Source: Eledone cirrhosa
Taxonomy: Eukaryota
Assembly (NCBI GenBank): GCA_964016885.1
Contig: OZ024740.1
Location: 260,524,001 to 260,588,000 of the forward strand
Reading direction: 5' to 3'
DNA length: 64,000 nucleotides
In this document: positions 3,824-58,854 of the stretch, one piece after another
Layout of the letters: each line of letters begins with the position of its first letter
Numbering within the stretch: the first letter of the stretch is position 1
Notes under the pieces: model-generated
Seen by the model: the letters and a program-made list of their open reading frames with translations, nothing else
What the model was told of the DNA's origin: nothing
Databases searched by the model: none
Translations under genes and position numbers: made by a program

Positions 3824-6800
3824 CAACAAAAAGAAAACCCCGTGACCCAGAAATACCGGGATGGCGGCCGGCGGGGAATAGCCGTGTCTCTAGGGGAGAA
3901 CGACCCCTCTAGTCTTGGTTGACACTCGTTCTAGAAGTGGTAACACGAAATGATTACCCCTTGGCGGATAAGGATAAAACGCGACAAAATAAAGTAAATG
4001 TCTAATGATAAAATCTCATACCGGATCGGCCGTCACCCGGGTAAAAAAGGGCCGCGTCCCTCAGAGAGGAACCAGACTGGGGTCGAAAAATCAGCTAATG
4101 GTTCAAACCTTCCCATCACTTCGGAGCTGGAGACCTCCCATAACCGGAATACTCCTACTGTTGGCCCTCCATGCTCACCACCAAGAAATCCAAAGAAAAA
4201 GAGAGAAAAATGGTCAAGGGAAGATAATAAAGAAGTCCTTGAGGCTTTCTACACTGCCATGTACTACCCATCAAATACATCGAACACAGAACAGACATAT
4301 ATCAACTGGAAAAAGAAACATCCCGAAAACAGAGGCTATATTGACAGTAACAAACTAGCCAATATACGAAGAAATATTGTAAGAAAAAAGTTACTAACTG
4401 ATATAGAAATTGATCAGATCAAGCTATTAGCACAAAGTCAGCGAAGGGAAAATGAAACATGTGTCAGTGAAAACGAGGTAAACTGTAACACTTCGAACCC
4501 CAGGGTTGGGGCGGAATCACTGGCAACAGAACAAATTAAAGAAAGGATCGAAAAAGAGGAGGGAGTGCATGCTCAGGATGAAACTCCAAATGAAAATAAT
4601 GAGATCGTAAATGATAAAGAAATGAATGAGAATGAACTTGCCAACTTGAAGGATGAAATTATGATCGAATGGATGAAAATGAAAGAATCTGACATGGGGC
4701 AACGAGACACCCTCCCTAAGATCCAGAACTCCAAACAGAACCAAAAGATAATACACAAGACTAACATAATTCTCAAAAACATTATCATCACAAACAAACT
4801 AAACATTACTGATTTAAATCATCTCTATTATGCATCGGCTAAAGTCACCACTCACTTATGTGGAGTGAAGATGAAAAAACAAAGGAATTCCCACAAGAAA
4901 TCTACTTGGCAAGAGAACATCAATCGCCAAATAAACCTTCTCCGATCTGACATAGAAATTTTAACAAACTATAAAGTAGGTGAACATGTTAAACAAACTA
5001 AACTTAGAAAATTGAAAAAAAAGTACAGTATAAAATCAACATGTGACATAGACATGCTGATAGAAATAATCAAGCAAAAAGTGTCGGCCAAAGCTGCTCG
5101 TATAAGGCACTTTGAAAAACGATCTAGATTCTATAAGGACAATAATATGTTCAAAAACAACCAAAGAAACTTCTACAGAAAAATTGGTAAGTCAACAATA
5201 ACTGCTAAATCAATACCACCCAAGGAGGAAGTGCAAGAATTCTGGGAAAAGATCTGGGCCGAAGAAAAAGTTCATAACATACATGCCCCATGGATAGACA
5301 GACAAATGAAAGATACAGCTCACCTTGAGGAACAAACATGGGAAAATATAACAGTTGAACAGTTGCGCTTGGCTCTAAGAAAAACCAGCAAATGGAAATC
5401 CCCAGGAAAAGACAAAATACAAAACTTTTGGATAAATGCCTTCACAGAGTCTCATGAGCTGTTAGCCCAACTTTACAATGAAATAGTTAAGGAGCCAGAA
5501 AAGATACCATCATGGCTAGTTAACGGCATTACATTCCTGCTTCCGAAGAATGATGAGACAAACAATCCCAAAAATTACAGACCGATAACTTGCTTGACCA
5601 CAATGTATAAAATTTTAACATCAGTCCTAACTGAATACACATATGACCACCTGATAACAAATGACCTATTTCCCATTGAGCAGAAAGGCTGTAAGGATCA
5701 GCTAACAAAATGATACTGGAAGATTGTCATAATAGACACAAAAATCTATCGATTGCTTGGATAGATTATAAAAAAAGCATTCGATAGTTTGCCACACAGT
5801 TGGATTGAAAAATGTTTAGAGATTTTCAAAATATCCCCCGTTGTCAGGAGGTTTTTGTCATTCAGTATGAAGACATGGAAAACGACACTCCTTTTGAATA
5901 GTGAAACAAAATCACTGGAAGCTGGAGAAGTTAATATTAATTGTGGAATTTTTCAGGGTGACTCTTTATCACCGCTTTTATTCTGCATCGCACTTATACC
6001 ATTAAGTAAAATGCTCAATGAAACAAAACATGGATATAAAGTCTATGACAAAACCATTAATCACCTGTTCTACATGGATGACCTGAAACTATTTGCAAAA
6101 AATGATGAACAATTGCAAAGGCTATTATCCACTGTGAAGCAGTTCAGTGATGACATTAAAATGGAGTTTGGACTAGATAAATGCGCCAAAGCAACGTTCA
6201 CCAGAGGAAAGCTGCTGAAGAGTTCAGACATTAATCTTGATCGGGGGAACGTGATAAGAGAACTTGATCAAGAAAAAACTTACAAATATCTAGGTGTTTG
6301 TGAAGGAGACGGAATCAAGCACTCCACAATGAGGGAAAGGATAAGGAAGGAATGTTACCGCAGAGTAAGAGCAATCTTAAGAACGGAATTGAATGCAAGG
6401 AATAGGATCGATGCCATAAACACGCTTGCCATACCAGTAGTAACCTACAGTTACAATGTCATCAACTGGTCAAGCACAGAGATCCGTAGGCTCGATACAA
6501 AAATTCGAAAATTCTTAACCATGCGCAGAATGCATCACCCTAAGGCAGATATAGATAGAATATATCTCCCTAGGAAAGAAGGAGGACGTGGGTTAATCGA
6601 GTTAGACATTGCGTTGAAAACTGCAACAATTGGATTATCTACATATCTAAGGGAATCACATGATTGGATGATCAAACTCGTTTTGATACACGAAAGCATC
6701 AAAAGATCATATTCCATTACAAAAGATGCACAAAGATACAGTAATGGACTACAAAGTTCAGAAGTCCCATTTACTGCTGAAATGGAAAACACAGAAAAAG

Positions 6801-29024: not shown

Positions 29025-30219
<1,195 letters not shown>

Positions 30220-30336
30220 GACAAACATAGAATATTCTATTCTGTATGTTTATAATAAACATTTTGAAGACCTAATCGCTATAGGATAGAATACGTCACG
30301 TATTACAATTTGAGATTCTCGATAAAAGCAAGGGAA

Positions 30337-30379
30337 GTAACCTACGCGTTTCATTCTTATTAGAAATCTTCAGGATTAC
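30337..30379 (-). ncRNA. Minimal type I hammerhead ribozyme
   Basis: guaauc CUGAAGA u-uucu-aaua-agaa-u GAAA cgcg UA gguuac. Confidence 0.9.
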
Positions 30380-30648
30380 ATATCCAATGCTTTTATCGAG
30401 AATGACACAGCTAGAGACTTATAGAATACTTAGCTGTGTACAGGAACTGGTTTGAAAGAGCGGTTGCCGGTCTGGCAGAAATTAGAATTTGGATTTAATG
30501 CTCTGAAATAGCGATATATATGTGAAGACAAACATAGAATATTCGAAAATATTCTGTATGTTTATAATAAACATTTTGAAGACCTAATCGCTATAGGATA
30601 GAATACGTCACGTATTACAATTTGAGATTCTCGATAAAAGCAAGGGAA

Positions 30649-30691
30649 GTAACCTACGCGTTTCATTCTTATTAGAAATCTTCAGGATTAT
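30649..30691 (-). ncRNA. Minimal type I hammerhead ribozyme (tandem copy)
   Basis: Same motif 312 nt from the first. Confidence 0.9.
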
Positions 30692-30745
30692 ATATCCAAT
30701 GCTTTTATCGAGAATGACACAGCTAGAGATAAAAGCATTGGATAT

Positions 30746-30788
30746 GTAATCCTGAAGATTTCTAATAAGAATGAAACGCGTAGGTTAC
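30746..30788 (+). ncRNA. Minimal type I hammerhead ribozyme (inverted copy)
   Basis: gtaatc ctgaaga tttctaataagaat gaaa cgcg ta ggttac. Confidence 0.9.
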
Positions 30789-30945
30789 TTCCCTTGCTTT
30801 TATCGAGAATCTCAAATTGTAATACGTGACGTATTCTATCCTATAGCGATTAGGTCTTCAAAATGTTTATTATAAACATACAGAATATTTTCGAATATTC
30901 TATGTTTGTCTTCACATATATATCGCTATTTCAGAGCATTAAATC

Positions 30946-31017
<72 letters not shown>

Positions 31018-32007: not shown

Positions 32008-32160
32008 GATCTCGCGTATAATCGTGGGTGCCCACAGTTACAAATGGAACTCAATACATATATATATATATATTGGAAAATGTGTGAGATCCTTGGTACA
32101 GTTAGGTATATTTGAAAAAATGGAAAAGAATGACTTCACTTTTTGTGTTAAAAAATTCAT

Positions 32161-33630
32161 GATGGGATAATATAGTTAGTAGGTGCCTCTAAAGACAAAA
32201 GAGAGATGATTACAGAGAGAGAGAGACAAAGGGGAATAATTTATGTTCAAGTTTATAGACAATTATCCATATATACAATATATATCTAAACTTATTTGGT
32301 TGACTGTTAATATTCAAAATATTTAATTTAAGTTAGTTCAGAGTAATGAATAATATTTTAGGTATTAAAAGTTAATAGATATCCGTATTAATATTATAGT
32401 ATACTATCAAGTTTAATTTCTAAAATTCAAATTTTATGAAATCAAATTTAAAGGATTTACAAACACGAGAAAGAAAATATAATGTTTTTATACCCTCACG
32501 AAGGTAAACTTTACCAAAATTATTTATAATATTGACAACAGTTTATATAATATAATTTATAAAATAATTATAGTTACAATTATTAAAGAATTTATGATTA
32601 ACAATTTGAGTGCCGAAAGGATCACAAATGCTCATTATCGAATTTTAATAGGAAGTCTTCCACTTCTTTATTACAACTTATATGGTCATTAAAAGACAAA
32701 CATTTCAAATACTCGATTTTTTGGACGAAGCTTTGTAATAGTAAAATATACTCGAACTCGTCTATATCAACTAACTGCAAACTCTGCACAAAGGAGACCC
32801 GATTGATAATTACTAATTATGAAAACTTAATTAACAAAAAAAGTGAATTATTCTCAAACTGCCTTCATGTTTGTAAATCCTTTAAATTTGATTTCATAAA
32901 ATTTGTATTTTAGTAATTAAACTTGATAGTATACTATAATATTAATACAGATACATATTAACTTTTAAAACCTAAAATATTATTCATTACTCTTAACTAA
33001 CTTAAATTAAATATTTTGAATATTAACGGTCAACCAAATAAGTTTAAATATATATTGTATATATGGATAATTGTCTATAAACTTGAACATAAATTATTCC
33101 TCTTTGTCTCTCTCACTCTCTGTAATCATCTCTCTTTTGTCTTTAGAGGCACCTACTAACTATATTATCCCATCAGCTGTTCCTCCTCTATGCTTTACTT
33201 TCTTTCCTCTTTCTTCAGTAATTAAAATTTTTTTTAACAGTTATATTGATGCCATGTATTTTTTAAGCTGTATTACACGCACCCTCTCTATTGTATGTAT
33301 TATATATTTTTCTCATGTTCTCAACATTAAGGTATATAAATATTGAGTTTTGTCATATATTACTCACTACCATGACTGAATCTTAACCATCTACTATGTC
33401 AGGGTATGTCATGCATCATCTTATTTTATCTGATGAGGACGTACTGTTGAACTTAACTCAGTACCTCTGAAATATGTATAATAAAATATACTTGATCACA
33501 AGAATATCTATTTTGTTAATATTTTGAATTAATATTAATAACTCTGGAAAACCTTTCTCTGTTGAGTGCTTCCAATCTATTGTAAAACCCATTCTTTGAT
33601 TTATTCATTAAACCTTGTTTAACTTTTAAA
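32161..33630 (+). mobile_element. 5'-truncated PLE with inverted segment
   Basis: 32161-32466 is the reverse complement of 32868-33174; degraded endonuclease C-terminus (NKKSELFSNCLH); hammerhead in the 3' region. Confidence 0.75.
33422..33488 (+). ncRNA. Type I hammerhead ribozyme in PLE 3' region
   Basis: uauuuuau CUGAUGA ggacguacug...caguaccucu GAAA uaugua UA auaaaaua. Confidence 0.85.
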
Positions 33631-33805: not shown

Positions 33806-34370
33806 ATATACTATAAAGTATGTCCATAGAATCATTTGATAATATATATACACCATTTCCTCTCCCAATTAGCATAATTAACCATACAAAAAATCAATTA
33901 GACCAGGCTATAAGATTAAAAGGCACCTATGAAGAAACAGTAAATAAATAAACGACAGCAATCTCTTCGCGGCCAACCGCCATATAATTTTACCCAACAT
34001 TTCAACAGCACGTGGAAATCGATTAAATATACCGTCAACCATAAACAATTAGATATAAAATTACTGTTAGAATAAATGCTTATACACATACCATGATTAT
34101 ATCCTTACCCTCGGGTGTCGTTCGCATTTTGATATATCCTATTAAGGATAAAATCTCGAGATTCGAACTCATCAGGAGACAAACTCGTTAGGACAGAATA
34201 TTTTCTAAAGTCGTCCCCGATTGCTGTCGTTTATTTATCTACTGTTTCTTCATAGGTGCCTTTTAATCTTATAGCCTGGTCTAATTGATTTTTTGTATGG
34301 TTAATTATGCTAATTGGGAGAGGAAATGGTGTATATATATTATCAAATGATTCTATGGACATACTTTATA

Positions 34371-34376
<6 letters not shown>
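33806..34376. repeat. Fold-back with 158-bp arms enclosing a damaged hammerhead (34100-34181, minus, GAAA>GACA)
   Basis: 33806-33963 is the reverse complement of 34219-34376. Confidence 0.8.
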
Positions 34377-34458
<82 letters not shown>

Positions 34459-34463
<5 letters not shown>

Positions 34464-35094
34464 TATTGAAGTTTGCTTGAAGCATTGTGGAATAATAAGT
34501 AAATATCTTTAAGTCGTTTGGAAGCCTCGACAATGCAAATGAGTAAATCTCCGGGTAACAAGATCCGGTGGTGGAGAGAGAGATGTAAGTGGGTGTACGT
34601 TGAGATGCGTGGTGTGTATGAGATGTGTAGAAGAATGAAGGAAAGAGTATAAAGGATAAATTTAAAATAACAACACGAGAGAGAGTTACCTTGGGAGAGA
34701 TTTAATAGTCCCTATATATTTCGGATTCACATCCATCAACTGGGGTTTTTTCCGAGGTGGGGGAAAGGTTGTCTGTCGGACAGGTGCGAACGCGTCCTCC
34801 GCTGTTTGTTGTTTTGAATATCTGAGGTATTCGGCAGAGCGAGCGTGCGCGTGAAATGGGGTCGGTCGGGCAGAGGTCAGCGGCCGAATGAGGCAGTGGG
34901 GTGGCGCTAGCTGTCAGTCCATTCTCTGCCTGTTTGTTAAATGTTACTGTGTGTGTGTGTGCGTGTGTTGTTGTCTCGCTTGAGTGTGTGTGTGTGCGCG
35001 AGTGTTGTTGCCTTGTTCCTCTGTATTGGCAGTGTAGTATGTTCGTATGGTGGAATGCTACTGTGTGTGTGTGCGTGTGTGTGTGTAGTTGTCT

Positions 35095-35136
<42 letters not shown>

Positions 35137-37321
35137 TGTTCCTGCATCGTTTGTTAGCTTAAACCAGCCATCTCATTTCGCTTCTCTCTGATCGGTTGTT
35201 TATTTGCGGTTGCATGCGTTTAATAAAAAGCGCTTCCTTGATACGTAACGTGCCGACGTTTCTTTCAGTCGCTAGAATTGTGACAATGGGCCTTCCGTCT
35301 TTGTTTCCGCATTTGTCTATGTGTTTCCGGAAAGACGAGGCCCTGGTTTTAGTGTGTTCCTTGATCCGGATGTGCAAAGGTCGGATTGTGCTACCTATGT
35401 AGTATTGGTTGCACCTGTCACATTCTATCTTATACACGACGTATGTGCGTAGGCAACAGTTCGCATGGCGTATCGGGCAGTCTCTGAGGGAGCATGCGTC
35501 AGTAGATTTCCCGGGTTTCCTGGAGAGGCATCTTCGCAGGGAGGGGCCCGAGTGGGCCAGGTGGATGTCGACGCCCTCCCTCCGTATAGCCTTGCGGATA
35601 GCGTTGGTGGTATCCTCGCCCAGGTGTGGCATTTTAAGGAAGCACTTTCCTTGGGTGCCTCTCTGTCTCTTGCGTCTGGCGTCTCCTATTCTGTCTGTGA
35701 TCGAGGTAGGGTACCCGTTCGTCTCCAGCACCTCGAGGAACCGCTTGGTATGAGTGACACCACTCGCGGGATCGCTGCATCTGTTTTTGATATCCTCATC
35801 CTCATATCTTCCCAAGACACGGCGTACAGAATCTATGAGACGTTCAACAACACGGACGAGAACATTGACTTCAACGTTGAACACCCCAACGAAGACGGGT
35901 CACTTGCCCTCCTCGACTTCCGAATCAAAATCACGGAACAGGGAAGGATCCACTGCAACTTCTACCGAAAGGCAGCCTGCAGGGACCTGTTCGTTCACTA
36001 CAAGTCCGCCCTCCCAAACAGTGCCAAAAGAGGATACATCACGTACGAGATCGCGCGAATCAAAAACAGATGCAGCGATCCCGCGAGTGGTGTCACTCAT
36101 ACCAAGCGATTCCTCGAGGTGCTGGAGACGAACGGGTACCCTACCTCGATCACAGACAGAATAGGAGACACCAGACGCAAGAGACAGAGAGGCACCCAAG
36201 GCAAGTGCTTCCTTAAAATGCCACACCTGGGCGAGAATACCACCAACGCTATCCGCAAGGCTATACGGAGGGAGGGCCTCGACATCCACTTGGCCCACTT
36301 GGGCCTCTCTCTGCGAAGATGCCTCTCCAAGAAACCCGGGAAATCTACTGACGCATGCTCCCCCAGAGACTGCCCGATACGCCATGCGAACTGTTGCCTA
36401 CGCACATACGTCGTGTATAAGATAGAATGTGACAGGTGCAACCAATACTACATAGGTAGCACAATCCGACCTTTGCACATCCGGATCAAGGAACACACTA
36501 AAACCAGAGCCTCATCTTTCCGGAAACACATAGACAAATGCGGAAACATAGACGGAAGGCCCATTGTCACAATTCTAGCGACTGAAAGAAACGTCGGCAC
36601 GTTATGTATCAAGGAAGCGCTTTTTATCAAACGCCTGCAACCACAAATAAACAACCGATCAGAGAGAAGCGAAATGAGATGGCTGGTTTAAGCTATCAAA
36701 CGATGCAGAAACACATGCACACACACACACGCACAATCGAGACAACTACACACACACAGTAGCATTCCACCATACGAACATACTACACTGCCAATACAGA
36801 GGAACAAGGCAACAACACTCGCACACACACACACACACTCAAGTGAGACAACACACGCACACACACACACAGTAACATTTAACAAACAGGCAGAGAATGG
36901 ACTGACAGCTAGCGCCACCCCACTGCCTCATTCGGCCGCTGACCTCTGCCCGACCGACCCCATTTCACGCGCACGCGCGCTCTGCCGAATACCTCAGATA
37001 TTCAAAACAACAAACAGCGGAGGACGCGTTTCGCACCTGTCCGACTGACAACCTTTCCCCCACCTTGGAAAACCCCCCAGTTGATGGATGTGAATCCGAA
37101 ATATATAGGGACTATTAAATCTCTCCCAAGGTAACTCTCTCTCGTGTTGTTATTTTTATTTTATCTTTTATACTTTTTCCTTCATTCTTCTACACATCTC
37201 ATACACACCACGCATCTCAACGTACACCCACTTACATCTCTCTCTCCACCACCGGATCTTGTTACCCGGAGATTTACCCATTTTCATTGTCGAGGCTTCC
37301 AAACGACTTAAAGATATTTAC
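34459..37321. mobile_element. PLE with CCHH-type GIY-YIG (Nematis-like), 5'-truncated, with an approximately 1.3-kb inverted copy
   Basis: 34459-35791 is the reverse complement of 36059-37321 plus a 40-nt tail; flanked by (TA)n. Confidence 0.92.
35789..36691 (+). pseudogene. PLE RT C-terminus, thumb and GIY-YIG endonuclease (open but 5'-truncated)
   Basis: LALLDFRI, FYRKAA, HYKSALP, VVYKIECDRCNQYYIGST.R.L..R..EH, KEALFI..PQIN. Confidence 0.92.
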
Positions 37322-37412
<91 letters not shown>

Positions 37413-37470
37413 TATATATATATGTTATACATATATAACACATATATATATATATATATATGTATGTGTG

Positions 37471-37504
<34 letters not shown>

Positions 37505-37527
37505 CAAATATATATATATATATATAT

Positions 37528-40500
37528 ATATACGATATTAACAAATGGAAACTATATTTATAAAACCATATCTATTTTATTATACATATTTCAAGGATAC
37601 CATGTTAAATTATGGTATGCTTTAAACAGACAAAATACAATATATATCAGTTTTATAAATAAATATTGACATACCCTTTCAAAATGCAACCGTTACTTTT
37701 GGAAGACATCAGGGATAGTGGATTTGTTTACTTATATTAGTAAGTCGTTGTGTTACGGAGAAGGAAAAAGACGGAGAGAGAGAAAGGCGGAGAGAGAAAG
37801 GCGGAGAGAGAAAGGGAGAAATAAAGAAAGAAAAAGAAAAAAAGAAAAAAGAGAAAAACGAAAGAGAGATATCAAAACACCAGACAGAGAGAAAAAAATC
37901 GAGAGAGAGAAATATAGAGATAGAGAGAAGGGGAGAGAACGAAAACCTTAAGTCATGTCATATTAAGTTAAGTTAACAATTGAGATGAAATGAATAAATA
38001 AAATTAGAAATATTAATATTCATGAATGGAATATACATATATAATATGAGAAATTAATCATTGTTTAACTATGATTAGATATTTAGTTTAAAAATTGAGA
38101 TCAATATATTAAAAATTGGAATTTAAACATTAAGAATCTATATATTGCTAGAGAAATTACATATCATATAACACGTACACACACGCAAAAATAAACATAA
38201 ATATATATATACACACACTCAGAAAATACACATCATATCTACCCCCGTATATAATATATACATACAAAGCATAAATGATTTTTTTTATTAAACTGATTTA
38301 CCAGTCAGATTAATTGCACCATCTAAATCTGACCTTGGCAGACTTAACAAAAATATTCTAGACAGAATAATACCACAAATTAAGAATTTACCTAATTTAT
38401 CTTACTTAAAATTATGGAAAGGAGCTAGTGAGGTTATCGATTGGTTTAAAGAAATTAAATATAACTATAATAATAAGTGTATTCAGTTGGATATTGCTAA
38501 CTACTACTCATCTATCACTCCTAATCTACTGAATAAGCCACTAACTTACGCATTTAAACATACAGACATAACTAGCAATGAAATGCACATTATATTATCG
38601 GCACGGAAAACATTAATAGAATTTAATAACCAACTCTGGACTAGGGCAGATAGAAATAATAATTTCGACATAACTATGGGATCTTCAGACTCAGCTCGGG
38701 TAACGGACTTGTGGGCCTATTTATAATTAATTCTCTACATAGAAAAATACCAGGTGTAACCGGAGGTTTATATCGTGACGACATGCTTTTACTTATAGAA
38801 AATAATAGCTGTGAACTAAATAGAAAAAGAAAACAAATTATACAATTTTTTAATTACCTTAATCTAAAAGTAGAAATAGAGAATAACCATAAAATAGTCA
38901 ATTTTCTAGATGTAACACTAAATCTTAACACATGTCTTCATTATCCATTTCACAAACTAAATGAGAACTTAAATTATGTCAATTTTAACTCTAATCACCC
39001 CAGATCCGTTAAAAATACTATAGTGAACTCTGTACAAGAACGAATTTCGAGAATTTCATCTAATAAGAATATATTTGATGAAAAAGCGCATTATTACAAC
39101 GATGCGTTAGGTAGAGCTGGGTATAGAAATAAAATTAAATACATCGATAATAGTAATAATATAAAAACTAACCAAAATAATAACAATTTTAACTATGGTA
39201 AGAATTTTAACAACTATAATAGAAAACATTACAATAATTCCGAAAGCCGAAAAAGAAATAGAACTAGGAACATAGTATGGTTCGCTCCTCCTTTCTCACT
39301 AAATATTAAAACCCCTATTGCTAAACTATTCTTTAAAGCTCTTGACAAACGCTTCCCTAGAATACATAGATATTACTCAATTTTTAATAGACATACTATA
39401 AAATTAACTTACTCTTCCACCAAAAATTTAGCGCAAAATATTAATAGAATTAATAATAGAAATTTAAAACCTAACCAAAATACCAATAATAACCCAAGCA
39501 ATATTCAATCGAATAATTGTAACTGTAGAAATAAATCCAACTGTCCGTTAAATAACAACTGCTTAGCTAATTTAAATTCATTTAATTATGTCGGATCTAC
39601 CTCCACAGAGTTTAAATCCCGCTTCAATAATCATAAAAATTATTTTACAGATCCAAACAAAAAATCTTCAACGTCGCTATCTAGCTTATTATGGGACCTA
39701 AAACGAGATAATGTTGAATATTCGCTGATTTGGAATATTATTTCAAAAGCTACTCCTTTTAATTCCTCTTCAGAAAATTGCGATCTTTGTATAGAGGAAA
39801 TATTCTTTATATTAAAGACCAAAAATTCCCTGAATTTAAGGAATAATTTATTCAGTTGCTGCAGACATAGATTGAACTCAACGTTTAAATATAAATATAA
39901 ATTTAAAATGTAGTATAATTAATTAAGTAATTTGGTTAATATATGAAACCTGTCGATAAATCATTAGATTCCTTCATCTTTTTCATTTTCTTTGGTTAAG
40001 TACTCAAGTATAAATAAATTGTCTTCCTAAATATAAATTTAAATATAATAAACGATTCTAGAGAAATATATCGAGAGCTCTTGAAAGGAGAAAATATTTC
40101 CTATTTCTTATTTTTTATATTTTTTATATTTTTTATATTTTTTATATTTTATATATTTTTTATATTTTTTATATCTTTTATATTTTTTATATTTTTCATA
40201 TTTTATTTATTTTTTATTAGGTTTGCTTTTATTCTGATAGCTTCTCATAATTTTCGAAAGTTTATCCTTTCAATATCTTGAGTAAAATATACGTAAGATA
40301 AATTTCTATACTAAATCTATTAAACATATTATTTTAACTTAAAATATTCTATAATATTTTAAAATATTTTAATATTTTAATATTTTAGAATTCTTTTGTT
40401 TTTAAGTTATATTGATATAATTATATTTCCAAAATATAATCCTTTTGTATTTTATGTACTCAATTATACTATGTACTATATTGATGTATACTTATCTCTA

Positions 40501-41534
40501 TACGTGTATGTATGTATATGTGTATATTAACATACATATACATGTGTTATATGCATTTTTATGAATATATGTCTGTCTGTATATATGCATGCGTGACGCG
40601 TGTCTACCAATTGGCTGAGAATGCACACACATGTTTATATATATATATGTAAGAATTGTGTGTACATGTACATGTGTACCCATACAATTTGATTGCAGAT
40701 AGACATAATTAACAGCCATAAATGCATGACAGCTAATCTTATATATTTATATATTTATATTAAACATTTTTATTTAATAACACAAAGAATGTATAACATT
40801 AATAAAAAAAATCATTTATGCTTTGTATGTATATATTATATACGGGGGTAGATATGATGTGTATTTTCTGAGTGTGTGTATATATATATTTATGTTTATT
40901 TTTGCGTGTGTGTACGTGTTATATGATATGTAATTTCTCTAGCAATATATAGATTTCTTAATGTTTAAATTCCAATTTTTAATATATTGATCTCAATTTT
41001 TAAACTAAATATCTAATCATAGTTAAACAATGATTAATTTCTCATATTATATATGTATATTCCATTCATGAATATTAATATTTCTAATTTTATTTATTCA
41101 TTTCATCTCAATTGTTAACTTAACTTAATATGACATGACTTAAGGTTTTCGTTCTCTCCCCTTCTCTCTATCTCTATATTTCTCTCTCTCGATTTTTTTC
41201 TCTCTGTCTGGTGTTTTGATATCTCTCTTTCGTTTTTCTCTTTTTTCTTTTTTTCTTTTTCTTTCTTTATTTCTCCCTTTCTCTCTCCGCCTTTCTCTCT
41301 CTCCGTCTTTTTCCTTCTCCGTAACACAACGACTTACTAATATAAGTAAACAAATCCACTATCCCTGATGTCTTCCAAAAGTAACGGTTGCATTTTGAAA
41401 GGGTATGTCAATATTTATTTATAAAACTGGTATATATTGTATTTTGTCTGATGAAAGCATACCATAATTTAACATGGTATAATAAAATAGATATGGTTTT
41501 ATAAATATAGTTTCCATTTGTTAATATCGTATAT
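37528..41534 (+). mobile_element. PLE (Hydra-clade-like), 5'-truncated, with a 760-bp inverted pseudo-LTR
   Basis: 37528-38291 is the reverse complement of 40799-41534; RT/EN body in between. Confidence 0.9.
38292..39913 (+). pseudogene. PLE RT plus GIY-YIG ORF, frameshift near 38705
   Basis: VRLIAP, LDIANYYSSI, FDITMGS, LYRDD, NFLDV, SNHP, WFAPPFS, CNCRNKSNCPL, YVGST..FKSRF.NH, CDLC, CRH. Confidence 0.9.
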
Positions 41535-41616
41535 TTACTCGAAATACTTGTCGAGTGCTTTTTATCAGTTATAAAAATATTTGGTTGTTGTATCCCAACA
41601 ATTTAAATAGAACTTT

Positions 41617-41650
<34 letters not shown>

Positions 41651-41668
41651 ATATATGTAACATATATG

Positions 41669-41782
<114 letters not shown>

Positions 41783-42079: not shown

Positions 42080-42481
42080 GGTATTAATATTGGTGCTCTG
42101 AAATAGCGATGTATATATGAATATATGTATAGTATATTTGGCAATACACTGTATGTTTACTTGAAAACATTTAGAAAACCATTCGCTATGAGTTTTTAAG
42201 TAGTGACTATGTCACTTACTTATTCTCGGTAAATAACAACTGCGAGTGATCGACAGAGAGTCTGTTTCTCGCTTGTGGGCGTTTATCAAGACAACACTCT
42301 GCCTTTGCCGATAATTATAGGAGCTGGATTCTTATAGAACTCCAGTAATAATCAGGAGCTGATAATACAGAGCGATTGCCTGTCCAGTAAAAATTAGGTA
42401 TTAGTATTGGTGATCTAAAATAGCGATGTATACATGTATGTATGTATAGTATATTTGGCAATGTACTGTATGTTTAATTAA
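42080..42481 (-). mobile_element. 317-nt retrozyme-like unit with about 85-nt terminal direct repeat
   Basis: ggtatta.tattggtg at 42080 and 42397; homologous to 58448-58752 and 30217-30524. Confidence 0.78.
42249..42292 (-). ncRNA. Hammerhead ribozyme, U3:A8 core variant
   Basis: guc UUGAUAA a-cgc-ccacaa-gcg-a GAAA cag-acucu-cug UC gau. Confidence 0.75.
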
Positions 42482-44420: not shown

Positions 44421-44639
44421 AAGGGATTACATTTAAACGGTTGAGGTGTGCTTATCTGTAACTCCATGTGCCCCCTCTCTTCCCGCCTCTGTTATTCGAA
44501 CTGAAGAAATCTCCGAGCCTGGGAAAATAGGAGCCCCCCCCCCCCCCCTCTAATTCCGTTTTCGGAAAAAAAGGCGATATATAATAGAGAAAATAGAAAA
44601 ATATATTCTACGAAAGAACTTAGGTAAAAAAATGTCTTC

Positions 44640-47072
44640 ACGATCCCCATATATTTAGTAACTATAACCCTTGTAGAATAGAAATCCTTAAAAAACAACT
44701 ACTTAAATTCTTTAAGAACTATGAACTCACCATAACTATTGAGGCTAACCATAAAATTGTTAATTTCTTTGATACAACTTTAGAGCTATTACGGAACTTT
44801 AACCGTCCGTACCACAAACCAGGTGAGATCCTATCTTATATAAGCAGATTCTCAAAACATCCCCTATCTATCGTTAATTCTATTGTCAAAGGTGTCTCAC
44901 ATAGAATTTCTAAACTTTCTGCTATCGAGGAAATCTTCAACGATGTAGTGTGGTATTATAATGAAGCACTCTCTAGATCAGGGTATGTTAATAAAATCAC
45001 ATACCTCCCTGACACTAAGTCCACTCCTACCTTGATAAACAGGAACGTAATATCACAAGCTAGTAATCCTAACATTAATAAGAACATAAATAAAAATACA
45101 AATAAAAATAAAAGCACTAGTATTAATCATTTTATCAGTAATATCGTGAATAATACCCATAATCCTAGCGAGCTTAAGAAAGTACCTTATGCTAAAATTG
45201 TAAACCTTACTGAATACCCTATGTATAATAGAAATAAAGATGACAGCTTATTTTCCACACCTAGAAATAAATTTAGAATCAATTTTAATAATAATCCTAA
45301 ACCTTTAAAAACATAGCTTATAAGTAAATTTGGTAATAAAGGCAATTTCATTAATAGTACGAACCATATTATAAATATTCCCCATAATAAGTTAGATTGT
45401 ATTCCTAAGTATATGAAACAGAAAAAATTTCCTGGTACAATCCTCCGTACTCTCGCAACTTAGCCGTTAATATTCCTAAAATGTGCTTTACCATCATACA
45501 AAGAAACTTCCCACCTGACCATAAATACTATAAATTAATAAATAAAAACAATGTCAAAATTTATTTTTCTACAACTCCTAACTTAACTGACTATATTGCT
45601 TTTAGTAACCACAAAAAATGATATAAGCTTCTAATAATGATAGTATTACATTACCTCAGAACCCTTTATACACAAATTCTAACAATATTGATAATACTTA
45701 TAATACTTCTATACCAACCAAGCTAACCAGTAATAGACTAAGCAAACATAACTTTCTAAATAACAACTCCCCTGTTTTTAATATAAAATGTAATTGTAGG
45801 ATTCCAGATAATTGCCCACTGGGAGGATTATGCTTCCTTAATAACTTAGTATGCACAGTAACTACCGAAAATAGTATCAACTCAAATATTGCCACCACAG
45901 CTAATCAATTTAAGACTAGCTATAATTCCCATATATATTCTTTTAAAAATAAAGAAAAACTCTAAAATACTACCTCTAGCTAATTATACAACTGAATTAG
46001 TTGAGGCTAAAACTAACTACACAACCCATTGGGAAATTCTCACTAGATCTACCCCCTACAATAGTAATACAAACTGTAATTTATTTTTAACGGAAGCGTA
46101 TTACATCACACTGTCGACACTTGCCCAATTAATAATAGGAACGAAATAGTTATTAATTGCCCTCATCGCCTCTCATACTCGTTCTTCAATATAGTTTACA
46201 ATCCCACTTAAATTACTGCTAATCAAGTCTACATACCGCTCTCCTTTCCTAATAGCCCTTTACTCGAGCCTATAATCTCTTAACTAAGTGCTTCTATACT
46301 TATGAATCATTTATTCCTTTGTACTGATAGTATAAATTTATGATTGGGATAAGTAGCTGTGTATTTTTTATTTAAATTAATGTTAGTAACTATCCAAGTT
46401 GTTGGATATTAAATCATTTCTGTTGCGCAATTCTCTCTTATAAAATTTACATACAGTATTTTAAAATATTGTTCTACTGATAGAATCATTCATTTATTTG
46501 CCATGTACACAATATGATATTAACATCTTAACATATCTACAACTCCTTCTTCAATCTAGTTAATATGACAATATATAATTAGACATATTGATATAGTTAT
46601 TTTTTATAAGATAAAGTAACTTCAATTAATATTGAAAAGTTTGAAATTTTAGTATCATCTCATTTAGTTACTGAATTTTTTCCTAGAAATTATTTTACCT
46701 TATATTAATTGTCTGCCTTTAGCCTTTAATGTGTTTTCTTAGACCAGACCAAAATGGCGCCAGATATCACTCTTCGATGTTTATATGCAGTAAAGTCTTT
46801 ATTTTCTCGTTTAACAAGTATATTTTTTGTGAAATTGTTGATGTATACTGCTTGATGTGAGTTAATTTTGAGTGACTTTCTTATTGAATTATGTTTCTTT
46901 ATTCTGAAGACGGTGCAATAACGTATATGTTGGCAAACTTTGATTAACGGTCAAATTTCTGCCGTTTGAATTTGAATTGCTAATTTAACACATTTATACA
47001 CCAGAAACATTTGTAAATGAATAAACATTTTTAATGAGTGTTAGTTGATTCTCATTGAATTAATTTTGAATA
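44640..47072 (+). mobile_element. Degraded Hydra-like PLE
   Basis: IVNFFDTTL, RPYHKP, SKHP, YYNEALSRSGY, WYNPPYS, CNCRIPDNCPL, CPHR; 3' hammerhead. Confidence 0.82.
46898..47021 (+). ncRNA. Type I hammerhead with long stem II
   Basis: uuuauu CUGAAGA cggug...cacca GAAA cauuug UA aaugaa. Confidence 0.7.
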
Positions 47073-51354: not shown

Positions 51355-52579
51355 GTATATATACATATATACATATATATATATACATATATATATAAAT
51401 GACTTAGCTTCTACCTTCAATGAGTTAGGCCTTAGGATAACAGTAGCCACCAACCTCTCTAGCCTAGATTTCTTAGACATTAATTTAGACCTTCGCAGGC
51501 ACACCCACAGACCCTTCCATAAGCTAAACGAGAAACTTAATTACATTCACAAGGACTCATGCCCCCCCCCCCCACTGTTTTTAGAAACTTCGTTAAGAAT
51601 ATCAGTACTAGAATCTCAAACCTCTCCTCTAATAAGGCTATCTTTGACAGGGCGGCACCCTACTATAACACGGCGTTGGCTAAAAGCGGCTTCTCACAAC
51701 CTATCACCTACTCACCCACTAGCAACAACGCCATTAAGAAAAGTAAGCGCATCAATAGACAAACTATCTGGTTCTCTCCTCCATTCTCACTCAACGTTAA
51801 AACCAATGTAGGAAAAAAATTTCTAGCCTTCTTAGATAGACACTTCCCCATAGGTCATAAATACCGCTGCATCTTTAACCGACACAAAGTTAAACTAGGC
51901 TACTCCTGCGCTAAGAACATGAAGGCCCACATCACCAGCAGCCCTAGGAGCAACACCCCACCAGGGTGCTCTTGCCGTAAGCCTGAAGCTTGCCCCCTTC
52001 AACAACAATGCAACACACCAGCTGTAATCTATGAAGCTGTGGTCACTTCCAACCGACCAAACGAACCACAGGAGGTCAAATCCTATGTGGGCATTGCGGA
52101 GGGCCGATTCAAGGAGCGTTTCCTGAACCACCAGTCTACCTTCAGATACCCGGACAGATGTTCATCCACGAAACTCGCGAGCCACGTATGGTCTCTCAAG
52201 GACTCAAGTATAGGGTACTCCATTCAACGGAAAGCCATCACTAAGTCCAAGCCATACACAAGGGGAAATCCGACGTGTGGCTTATGTATTGACGAGCGAA
52301 TAACTATCCTAAAGAGATTACGCAATAGTGATTGCCTAAACACGAGAAGTGAATTTTTCACACATTGTCCACACGTCATCAAACATCTATTTCATAACTA
52401 CAAGGCTCCGGACTGATTCTTTGTAATTTTATTTTCAACCAAAAAACTTTCCGGACTTTCGCAGTTATCTCCCTTACACCCCCCCGCATGCAGTCTAGTA
52501 TTGCCTGTGTGAAGTGACCGAGTTTCTGCGCATGCGCGTTCGTACGGTTTTCCTTCCTGTTCCTATAACCATACACATC

Positions 52580-52619
52580 CCGAGCTGAAGATCCGCGAAG
52601 GTGAAACAATTGTTCTCGG
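52580..52619 (+). ncRNA. Minimal type I hammerhead, upstream pseudo-LTR
   Basis: ccgag CUGAAGA u-cc-gcgaa-gg-u GAAA caauug UU cucgg. Confidence 0.85.
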
Positions 52620-52872
52620 TTTGGTGAACTAACTGTTGTGTAACCACTTCTAGCTAACTCGTCCCTTGGACTGAGTGCTCTACCACTACGTATATTACCT
52701 TCCAGTGTTCCACCACTATCTACGTCTCCAACAGCGGTCAGCAGATTCTCCTCACTACGTAGAAGTTTGGCTTTTAGCAGATTCTTCACCACGTGCGAGT
52801 TTGGCTTACTACCCTGAGAGCGCTCTATATATCCTCGTGTCCTACACAATTTTGCGTCTCATCAACGTCAGT

Positions 52873-54974
52873 ATGGATTTATACGAACTGAATTACTCCC
52901 TGAAGAACATTCCAACTCCCTTCAACCATGTTTACCAAAAGCTCCTTCTACAAAAAGCGGAAGATGTCGTCAGACGCCTAAGATGGCGAGCCCTAGCTTT
53001 CGACGGCAAAATTACAGGCACAAACAACACCTTCAACCTGAAATCGAGAGCCTACCTTCCTAAGGTAACCGAACTTGCTCCTTTCGAGACGGACCTTCTT
53101 GACTTAGTCACTAACATTTCCTTTCGCAAACACACTAACACCTTTCAAACGAAACTCAGAAACGATATTAAGAAATTTAGGTCTTCTAATAACACTTTCG
53201 TTCTTTCCGACAAAACTAATAATATTTACGAAGTCGACAACACCACTTTCCGCCACCTGACCCATAACGCTATTACTTCTAAATATAAGAAAGCTAACCC
53301 TATAGCCTACCAGGACATTAATACAGAAGCCAAAGAACTCGCCACCGACCTTAAGGTAGATAAGAAGCTACAATCTCTAGCTAAGCGGGAGGCGTTCCTC
53401 ACCCTGAAAGATCATAAGGTAGACTTTACTTCTAACCCCACATGTAGACTAATAAACCCGGCACGCACAGATAGGGGACTAGTCAGTAAGGCCATACTTA
53501 GAAACATAGTTAAGACCATTAGGATCAAGTCCAGCCTGTCCCAGTGGGCGAACAGCGACTCCGTAATTAAGTGGTTTAACTCCTTCAAATACAAAAAAGC
53601 GAAGTTCACACAGTTTGACATTGTCGATTTTTACCCGTCGATCTCAGAGACCCTGTTAAACAAAGCGTTGGACTTCGCTACCACTTATACCACCATCGAT
53701 GGTTTAGACAGGGAAATCATCGCTCACTGCCGGAAAACCCTCCTCTTCAACGACGGAGTAGCCTGGGCAAAGAAGTCTACATCTTCAACCTGTTCGACGT
53801 CTCCATGGGATCGTTTGACAGTGCTGACGTATGTGACTTGGTTGGCTTTTTTATCTTAGACATATTACGTGTTAGATTCCCGGACTTCCATACGGGAATA
53901 TACCGTGACGATGTACTAACTTTATCGAACCATAAAAGTGGTCACGACCTCGACCGGTTTAAAAAAGCTTCTACCTTCAATGAGTTAGGCCTTAGGATAA
54001 CAGTAGCCACCAACCTCTCTAGCCTAGATTTCTTAGACATTAATTTGGACCTTCGCACGCACACCCACAGACCCTTCCATAAGCTAAACGAGAAACTTAA
54101 TTACATTCACATGGATTCATGCCACCCTTCCACTGTTTTTAGAAACTTCGTTAAGAATATCAGTACTAGAATCTCAAACCTCTCCTCTAATAAGGCTATC
54201 TTTGACAGGGCGGCACCCTACTATAACACGGCGTTGGCTAACAGCGGCTTCTCACAACCTATCACCTACTCACCCACTAGCAACAACGCCATTAAGAAAA
54301 GTAAGCGCATCAATAGACAAACTATCTGGTTCTCTCCTCCATTCTCACTCAACGTTAAAACCAATGTAGGAAAAAAATTTCTAGCCCTCTTAGATAGATA
54401 CTTCCCCATAGGTCATAAATACCGCTCCATCTTTAACCGACACAAAGTTAAACTAGGATACTCCTGCGCTAAGAACATGAAGGCCCACATCACCAGCAGC
54501 CCTAGGAGCAACACCCCACCAGGGTGCTCTTGCCGTAAGCCTGAATCTTGCCCCCTTCAACAACAATGCAACACACCAGCTGTAATCTATGAAGCCGTGG
54601 TCACTTCCAACCGACCAAACGAACAACAGGAGGTCAAATCCTATGTGGGCATGGCGGAGGGCCGATTCAAGGAGCATTTCCTGTACCACCAGTCTACCTT
54701 CAGATACCCGGACAGACGTTCATCCACGAAACTCGCGAGCCACGTATGGTCCCTCAAGGACTCAAGTATAGGGTACTCCATTCAACGGAAAGCCATCACT
54801 AAGTCCAAGCCATACGCAAGGGGAAATCTGACGTGTGGCTTATGTATTGACGAACGAATAACTATCCTAAAGAGATTACACAATAGTGATTGCCTAAACA
54901 CGAGAAGTGAATTTTTCACACATTGTCCACACGTCATCAAACATCTATTTCATAACTACAAGGCTCCGGACTGA
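52873..54974 (+). pseudogene. PLE RT plus GIY-YIG ORF (about 700 aa), one frameshift near 53780
   Basis: YSLKNIP, SDKT, TLKDHK, CRLINP, FDIVDFYPSI, MGSFD, IYRDD, WFSPPFS, CSCRKPESCPL, VIY..YVG, CGLC, CPH. Confidence 0.92.
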
Positions 54975-55156
54975 TTCTTTGTAATTTTATTTTTAATTTT
55001 TTTATTTTATTTTCAACCAAAAAACTTTCCGGACTTTCGCAGTTATCTCCCTTACACCCCCCGCACGCAGTCAAGTATTGCCTGTGTAAAGTGACCGAGT
55101 TTCTGCGCATGCGCGTTCGTACGGTTGTCCTTCCTGTTCCTATAGCCATACACATC

Positions 55157-55196
55157 CCGAGCTGAAGATCCGCGAAGGTGAAACAATTGTTCTCGG
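55157..55196 (+). ncRNA. Minimal type I hammerhead, downstream pseudo-LTR
   Basis: Identical to 52580-52619. Confidence 0.85.
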
Positions 55197-55223
55197 TATG
55201 GTGAACTAACTGTTGTGTATCAC

Positions 55224-55270
<47 letters not shown>

Positions 55271-58322: not shown

Positions 58323-58854
<532 letters not shown>

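Follow-up and report, generated by a model that had tools for sequence, protein, structure and literature searches.

The inverted tandem repeat at 30217–30950 of the 64-kb window, by which we mean the whole stretch of DNA analysed here, is one insertion of a young, non-coding family with near-identical copies. By its architecture we take this 312-nt family to be a metazoan non-LTR retrozyme, ordinary for the class, and it is very likely that the family is mobilised by a PLE. We suggest that the ORF-less retrozyme is moved in trans by a PLE protein and on balance favour a unit-length circular RNA as its probable source. A sequence-only reading of the window had proposed both the class and the mobilisation by PLEs, and the two proposals are supported by the insertions of the family: all 94 pairs of classed ends consist of one short and one tailed end, and an attached ORF is present at none of 139 loci. 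The same reading had regarded the repeat as the best candidate for the hidden system. A new system it is not, since the class and the PLE hypothesis are already published (PMC7229834; 10.64898/2026.07.22.740005).

Structure of the repeat in the window

Unit positions (u) are counted on the minus strand from the first base past the predicted cut, u1 being 30654. The copy in the window consists of the following features, which were read from the sequence except for the tail, which rests on end mapping and on PMC11167929.

~30132–30216, no strand: left (TA)n target microsatellite
30217–30729, minus: short-end arm of 1.6 units (unit 238–312, one full unit, unit 1–132); its 3′ end merges into the (TA)n at u132
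30343–30654, minus: 312-nt unit bounded by two predicted cut sites, 34% GC, ORF-free
30649–30691, minus: hammerhead 1, type I, helix I cut to 5 bp, predicted cut 30655/30654
30337–30379, minus: hammerhead 2, type I, complete, predicted cut 30343/30342
30388–30403, minus: first strand of the 16-bp basal stem (unit 252–267)
30627–30642, minus: opposite strand of that stem within the full unit (unit 13–28); next copy at 30315–30330
30728–30729, no strand: head-to-head junction of both 5′-truncated arms, 2-nt microhomology
30728–30950, plus: tailed-end arm, unit 258–312 followed by unit 1–168, ending in (TA)n
30746–30788, plus: hammerhead 3, predicted cut 30782/30783
30915–30950, plus: putative PLE-type tail (unit ~133–168), the 27–35 nt separating the two fixed 3′ ends
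30949–31014, no strand: right (TA)n target microsatellite

The sequence-only reading had described three hammerheads, two of them on the minus strand 312 nt apart and the third inverted, and a sequence and structural scan recovered them all, with cores at minus 30685–30679, minus 30373–30367 and plus 30752–30758. Its other structural claims stand as well. The 16-bp stem is perfect: 30388–30403 pairs with 30315–30330 in the tandem or with 30627–30642 when it closes the monomer. There is no credible ORF, the circularised unit having a longest stop-free frame of 56 codons and a longest ATG-started frame of 34, and (TA)n flanks the copy on both sides. The 5′ ends of the two arms touch at 30728–30729 and overlap by 2 nt. 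Further details of this copy are a 5-nt deletion at unit 106–110 in its 3′-most partial unit and the retention of 10 of the 16 stem bases in the inverted plus arm.

A second inverted hammerhead repeat (29123–30141) adjoins the left (TA)n. It carries a plus-strand hammerhead at 29895–29925 with a similar helix II loop, has related tandem copies at locus L247 and shows no significant similarity to the 312-nt unit.

The hammerhead motif and the predicted RNA fold

Each of the three hammerheads shows a helix I of 6 bp (5 bp, through one substitution, in the copy cut at 30655), a 4-bp helix II that sits on a U.U pair, and a palindromic helix III made up of 2 bp and a loop. A stricter hammerhead descriptor matches the 64-kb window 5 times, and none of 100 dinucleotide-shuffled versions contains a match. 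Rfam returned no hammerhead family here among its 83 matches at E ≤ 1, all of which are under the gathering score, and the identification thus rests on the motif and the stems. Most of the 83 matches are hairpin miRNA models, which we rejected as artefacts of the inverted repeat. With its U.U at the base of helix II and its 2-bp helix III, the motif looks like a weak, dimer-type design. Such a helix III is poor in the monomer and becomes active once two neighbouring copies pair (PMC4209133). Eight of nine Xenopus retrozyme dimers failed to cleave in vitro (10.64898/2026.07.22.740005).

The unit is predicted to fold with –73.3 kcal/mol (z = –4.6; 0 of 100 shuffles equally stable) and as a circle with –71 kcal/mol. 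In the tandem alone, forcing both hammerhead folds should cost 7 kcal/mol. For a transcript that enters via the inverted arm the predicted cost of the hammerhead fold is 74 kcal/mol (–420.7 trapped vs –346.4). Read-through transcription of the window copy should thus give an RNA locked into one long hairpin, which makes this copy an unlikely source of unit RNA. According to these folds, it is more likely a source of dsRNA, unless transcription begins within an arm.

The variation among copies was compared with the predicted structure. Of 335 units, 327 have preserved the hammerhead core, whose sole common variant affects the free position N7. Two common variants of the 16-bp stem change A-U to G.U, so that pairing is kept on this strand only. 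Among the variants common to at least five insertions 1 of 11 breaks a pair, as against 77 of 177 singletons; since 25 of the 52 variants found in 2–4 insertions also break predicted pairs, the signal of selection is limited to the commonest variants. The pattern is consistent with a function of the ribozyme at the RNA level.

Family size and insertion ends

A 26-mer of the core has 1,582 exact matches genome-wide (control 0). Exact end patterns retrieve at least 334 short and at least 132 tailed ends, and the 312-nt family therefore comprises several hundred insertions. They are dispersed through a genome which also holds PLEs with intact frames. The units measure 312 or 310 nt with 34% GC, and the arms reach about 22 units; arrays of 11 to 22 units are present at L066, L093, L115, L120 and L230. 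The core matches split 625/957 by strand, yet the end patterns are balanced (69/63 and 165/169); the imbalance of the core may reflect a small number of very long arrays on one strand. A metagenome scan with a 21-mer of the core gave 0 matches.

We analysed 139 loci, namely 35 loci selected independently of their ends (all clusters among the first 100 core matches, contig C1), 5 long arrays, 60 loci found by the short-end pattern and 39 found by the tailed-end pattern. The arms are arranged head-to-head at 105 of them and 34 are single-armed. The 3′ ends fall at two sites. Short ends lie at about u132–141 (as aligned u123–149, mode 141, the true end being blurred by TA) and tailed ends at about u166–172 (as aligned u158–176, modes 166 and 168), with a tail of 27–35 nt between the two. 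Over the 139 loci a short end is paired with a tailed end in 94 cases, with an unclassed end in 4, and a tailed with an unclassed end in 7, the remainder being the single-armed loci; in 11 head-to-head loci the second end is irregular or cut off by the edge of the extracted region. Neither two short nor two tailed ends were ever combined among the 94 head-to-head loci with both ends classed (0 each), a number in which L060 and L061, which look like one duplicated locus, are both counted. The 35 loci that were picked blind to their ends comprise 26 pairs, every one of them short and tailed (26/26), and 9 single arms. The permuted ends that the sequence-only reading had expected genome-wide are thus confined to the 5′ ends, which scatter, and the 3′ ends are fixed. 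As both flanks of the insertions are (TA)n, a TSD is unreadable.

The overlaps at the arm–arm junctions are mostly 0–7 nt. At L068, L099, L113, L211 and L246 the arms meet symmetrically at unit-internal palindromes (~unit 81–102), suggesting that two cDNA ends had annealed there. Foreign DNA is found between the arms of L071 (943–1198, 256 nt, by eye like a LINE endonuclease fragment) and inside one arm of L210 (854–967, 114 nt). A junction position common to L112 and L128 sits on a 10-nt overlap, and we discounted it as a copied junction.

Mobilisation by a PLE and a candidate helper

PLE insertions are known to carry an inverted 5′-truncated copy and a tail of 30–40 nt, often at one end only, and PLEs of the Hydra and Naiad clades target (TA)n (PMC8557442). 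Work with purified PLE protein has demonstrated nicking and extension on each of the two strands, with copying that begins at two internal sites of the RNA; the tail is the stretch between these two RT start sites (PMC11167929). The inverted 5′-truncated arm and the one-sided tail are both found in the 312-nt family. Inverted arms are also present in the PLEs of this window, in keeping with the resemblance to neighbouring PLE insertions that had been claimed from the sequence.

PLEs lie in the window at 51406–55228, 37320–41758, 32160–33630 and 44624–46200. Three of them have the CxCx5C linker and are Hydra-type by motif, and hammerheads are located at 52585, 55162 and 33430 within window PLEs. 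Intact relatives of 743 codons were seen at L204 and L206. The clade labels used here go back to linker motifs in the translations, CxCx5C for Hydra and CX2-5CxxC for Neptune-like (PMC8557442), and not to a phylogeny. With Pfam, only a GIY-YIG domain was detected in one window PLE frame (E 1.6e-4, just under the cut-off), and two full PLE frames gave no relevant match. At 34359–37467 a head-to-head GIY-YIG PLE is inserted in (TA)n; its short end and its tailed end are ~40 nt apart, the tail length closest to that of the retrozyme. In its 3′ region the scan found no canonical hammerhead, but near 37075–37110 the sequence resembles a hammerhead whose core is altered.

One young PLE family of the genome has frames that stay open over 1,170–1,240 codons and copies 96–97% identical. 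Counted from the cut of its own hammerhead, it terminates at about +170 and about +230; its insertions lie in (TA)n and mostly combine one short with one tailed end (30 loci). By its CX4CX2C linker motif alone this element would be Neptune-like. At L074 (G000:C1:188837085-188843085, 818–1720) a short retrozyme arm abuts a tailed arm of the young PLE head-to-head. The PLE arm is 96.5% identical to an intact copy, and no PLE 5′ half is present on the other side. It is possible that this single case is a co-insertion which names the candidate helper, the Neptune-like PLE. The tail of the retrozyme (27–35 nt) is shorter than the ~60 nt of the candidate partner.

At L120 (G000:C2:219736859-219742859, 4440–5450) a 13-unit arm is joined to a decayed Hydra RT piece and its 3′ region. 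It is doubtful that this is a true co-insertion, for the Hydra piece is interrupted by a stop and by changes of frame and seems to break off at its own short site; the chimera points to another clade than L074 and could have been joined by a deletion. With 3.7% of the sampled loci covered by PLE ORFs, we estimate that of about 14 non-TA junctions about 0.3 would be expected to abut one head-to-head. The two directly abutting head-to-head PLE ORFs, against about 0.3 expected, are suggestive only.

The template of reverse transcription

The arms frequently extend beyond one unit. Of 227 arms, 187 run through one or more cut sites and 82 are longer than two units; 5′ ends show no excess around the cut, where 5 were seen at u307–4 and 7.5 were expected. 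A plain cut monomer is thus not the template. Divergence stands at 0.55% inside an arm, at 0.41% from arm to arm and at 1.9% from one insertion to the next, and the arms of one insertion share the haplotype in 50 of 53 cases (shuffled mean 9.8). Nine rare variants, among them the u58 change of the window copy, are fixed throughout their insertions, all units that span the position carrying them in either arm (for example 19/19 and 18/18 units). Such a rare fixed variant is present in 10 of the 51 insertions of three or more units. When polarity is set against the majority sequence, sense A>G changes account for 12 of 36 insertion-fixed variants, but for only 17 of the 231 mutations confined to a single unit (Fisher's test, p = 6e-5). 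If A>G is compared with T>C only, p is 0.024. This excess would fit A-to-I editing of one RNA which is then copied into all units, or the bias could stem from selection for G.U pairs or from RT error instead. Taken together, the read-through, the common haplotype and the sense A>G excess favour a monomer template in our view, and we lean towards a monomer circle or nicked circle. Common haplotypes would also be expected if one homogeneous master locus is active at a time.

Several further observations bear on the form of the RNA. At unit 190 (window 30465) an A/T mosaic occurs in 10 insertions, with a few other common variants being mosaic too; it is seen only in haplotypes with both letters and never in the 310-nt subfamily. 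The mosaic could reflect a mosaic master, a template switch or a modified base misread by the RT, and it counts against the circle because a single monomer does not predict mosaics. The length of the arrays was rejected as proof of a rolling circle, since the long arrays of L064, L115 and L120 contain periodic variant blocks, and long arrays appear to grow afterwards by block duplication. Reads joining 30343 to 30654, proposed earlier as a check, do not prove a circle either, as every genomic tandem has that junction. Contigs were compared for four of the six sequencing runs listed, which come from three studies. Run X4 yielded a single 342-nt contig (312 + 30), which cyclic assembly or tandem DNA would give alike. 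In run X6, whose kind is not on record and in which alleles are possible, T>C at 30430 is found in 33/287 as against 0/233,491 in run X1. T>C is also found in X6 at 30857 and 30873, both absent from X1, and its loose ends look A>G edited; we base no conclusion on this run.

The strongest competing explanation, which we nevertheless hold to be unlikely, is two-site PLE priming on an uncut linear multimer of a long homogeneous array, with the hammerhead incidental to the spread. Arrays of 11 to 22 units exist that could provide such an RNA, the hammerhead motif is weak, and for the anole PLE PAc cleavage is dispensable and unprocessed RNA is the main substrate in vitro (PMC11167929). Read-through at the cut sites is expected just as much from a multimer, and the mosaic of unit 190 fits a mosaic master. 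However, variants which differ within the long arrays are mostly private to those arrays, and the 5′ ends do not pile up at one site as they would at the start of a master. The rare variants fixed over both arms fit a bottleneck of one unit, and the hammerhead core is kept across diverged sister families.

It is considerably less probable that cleaved linear monomers were chained by template jumps of the RT between RNA molecules. Jumps would yield tandems and occasional mosaics such as those of unit 190, L059 and L111, and in the first 100 loci the 5′ ends were indeed in excess at u5–12 (11 vs 4.4); this excess did not replicate in 39 more loci (1 vs 1.8) and was dropped. Moreover, ends are not enriched at the cut itself, the unit junctions are precise (327/335 intact cores) and the haplotypes are unmixed in 50/53 insertions. 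The monomer circle stays our preferred template.

Relation to PLE coding sequences

The sequence-only reading would have been refuted by a unit that is always attached to a PLE ORF; at the 139 family loci, 0 contiguous same-strand PLE ORFs were found. In the first 100 loci, 32 have an RT or endonuclease match in their flanks, none of them both contiguous and same-strand. Same-strand matches lie within 300 nt at L062 and L105, but TA tracts intervene. An RT and GIY-YIG ORF between pLTRs, as in an autonomous EN+ PLE, is absent at these loci.

Sister families share unit 61–246 at 63–77% identity but have other hammerheads and stems. Their pattern has 8,199 matches genome-wide, and none of the first 30 runs into an ORF. 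In 7 of these 30 a hammerhead core follows downstream, in 4 cases with U3-A8, a covariation known from schistosome PLEs (PMC4209133). Two sister retrozyme families are present in the window on the minus strand, at 42094–42476 and 58443–58760, with unit 61–246 at ~64–66% and different hammerheads; the one at 42094–42476 has the U3-A8 core.

The unit was compared with one other hammerhead repeat and with the end regions of PLEs, of which five families, a small part of those in this genome, were covered; no score exceeded those of shuffles. The possibility has to be considered that the units are remnants of the pLTRs of an autonomous PLE which were amplified locally, because Xenopus retrozymes are homologous to PLE pLTRs (10.64898/2026.07.22.740005) and the ends of the 312-nt family behave exactly as PLE ends. 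Yet neither the 139 family loci nor the 30 sister matches hold a contiguous same-strand PLE ORF, module matches in 1.13 Mb sampled all belong to the family or its sister repeats, and the sequence past the tail goes back to the hammerhead and not into an ORF. This origin is therefore very improbable. A DNA-level satellite or fold-back (MITE-like) repeat with a hammerhead by chance, which the tandem and inverted structure and the later block duplications might bring to mind, is largely refuted by the end statistics (fixed 3′ ends, random 5′ truncation, asymmetric ends) and is further opposed by the want of a fixed terminal inverted repeat, the 0 motif matches in 100 shuffles, the covariation in the core and the strand-biased A>G.

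Comparison with known elements and proposed mechanism

The metazoan non-LTR retrozymes are tandem, non-coding units of 170–400 nt with a GC content below 50% and strong self-pairing, and they carry one type I hammerhead per unit (PMC7229834). The 312-nt family is the same in all these respects: its units lie within 150–450 bp and below 50% GC, have consecutive type I hammerheads, no coding capacity and a self-paired RNA, and occur as dispersed copies in a genome with PLEs. The closest motif is the axolotl HHR_Amex2, which also has the U.U at the base of helix II and a 2-bp helix III and works better as a dimer (PMC7229834). Cleavage and circles have been shown for the metazoan retrozymes in that report, whereas the 312-nt family is known from sequence alone. 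The head-to-head arms, the paired short and tailed ends and the (TA)n targeting are seen here and are unreported in the text of PMC7229834 that was consulted. Paired short and tailed head-to-head retrozyme ends were not found in the literature consulted, which includes PMC7761336 and PMC6962438 and on which supplements may bear. For the retrozymes of Xenopus the conclusion was likewise that they are PLE-derived and PLE-mobilised (10.64898/2026.07.22.740005). The evidence there is co-occurrence and pLTR homology; here it is the insertion footprint, with no pLTR homology found.

The EN+ PLEs (Poseidon PAc, PMC11167929; Neptune and Hydra, PMC8557442) share with the family the two internal RT starts, the tail of 30–40 nt at one end, the inverted 5′-truncated copy, the AT-rich or (TA)n targets and a hammerhead upstream of the starts (PMC11167929; PMC8557442). 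They differ in that they encode RT and GIY-YIG, while the retrozyme unit encodes nothing and has a period of 312 nt. Chlamys PLEs such as MRC1 are, like the family, non-autonomous passengers with multicopy head-to-tail insertions, but they are algal, have 3′-end similarity to an autonomous partner and are mostly without canonical hammerheads (PMC8557442). The LTR retrozymes of plants, which have a type III hammerhead in their LTRs, a PBS, a PPT and a 4-bp TSD, differ from the type I tandem without internal region described here.

A spread of retrozymes driven by PLEs and templated by circles has been proposed (PMC7229834). For the 312-nt family we suggest the following steps. A tandem copy would first be transcribed. 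By analogy with PMC7229834, the paired hammerheads would then divide the transcript into monomers of 312 nt, and a ligase of the host would close these into circles. A PLE RT/GIY-YIG protein, for which a dimer is predicted (PMC11167929), would nick a (TA)n tract on each strand and start one cDNA at each of two fixed internal sites 27–35 nt apart. The distance that each RT travels round the template would be about geometrically distributed with a mean of ~600 nt, and the two cDNAs would finally be joined head-to-head through microhomology. More tentatively, and with less confidence than we have in the circle as such, one could imagine that one PLE dimer holds a single self-cleaved, ligated and A-to-I-edited 312-nt circle, nicks the two strands of the (TA)n target and copies this circle repeatedly from both starts at the same time. 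The helper would be the young Neptune-like PLE with intact ORFs, and it would recognise the RNA by shape instead of sequence. If true, each insertion would be a two-armed genomic record of the rolling-circle reverse transcription of one RNA.

In summary, the genome holds hundreds of young ORF-free insertions, and the strict pairing of a short with a tailed end ties the retrozyme to the two-site priming of PLEs. This bears on how retrozymes re-enter the genome, and also on the inverted arm and the one-sided tail of the PLEs themselves. The footprint is unusually clean and makes the published model of mobilisation testable. As a small template and intact candidate enzymes are found in one genome, circle and multimer could be told apart by the published PLE assay.
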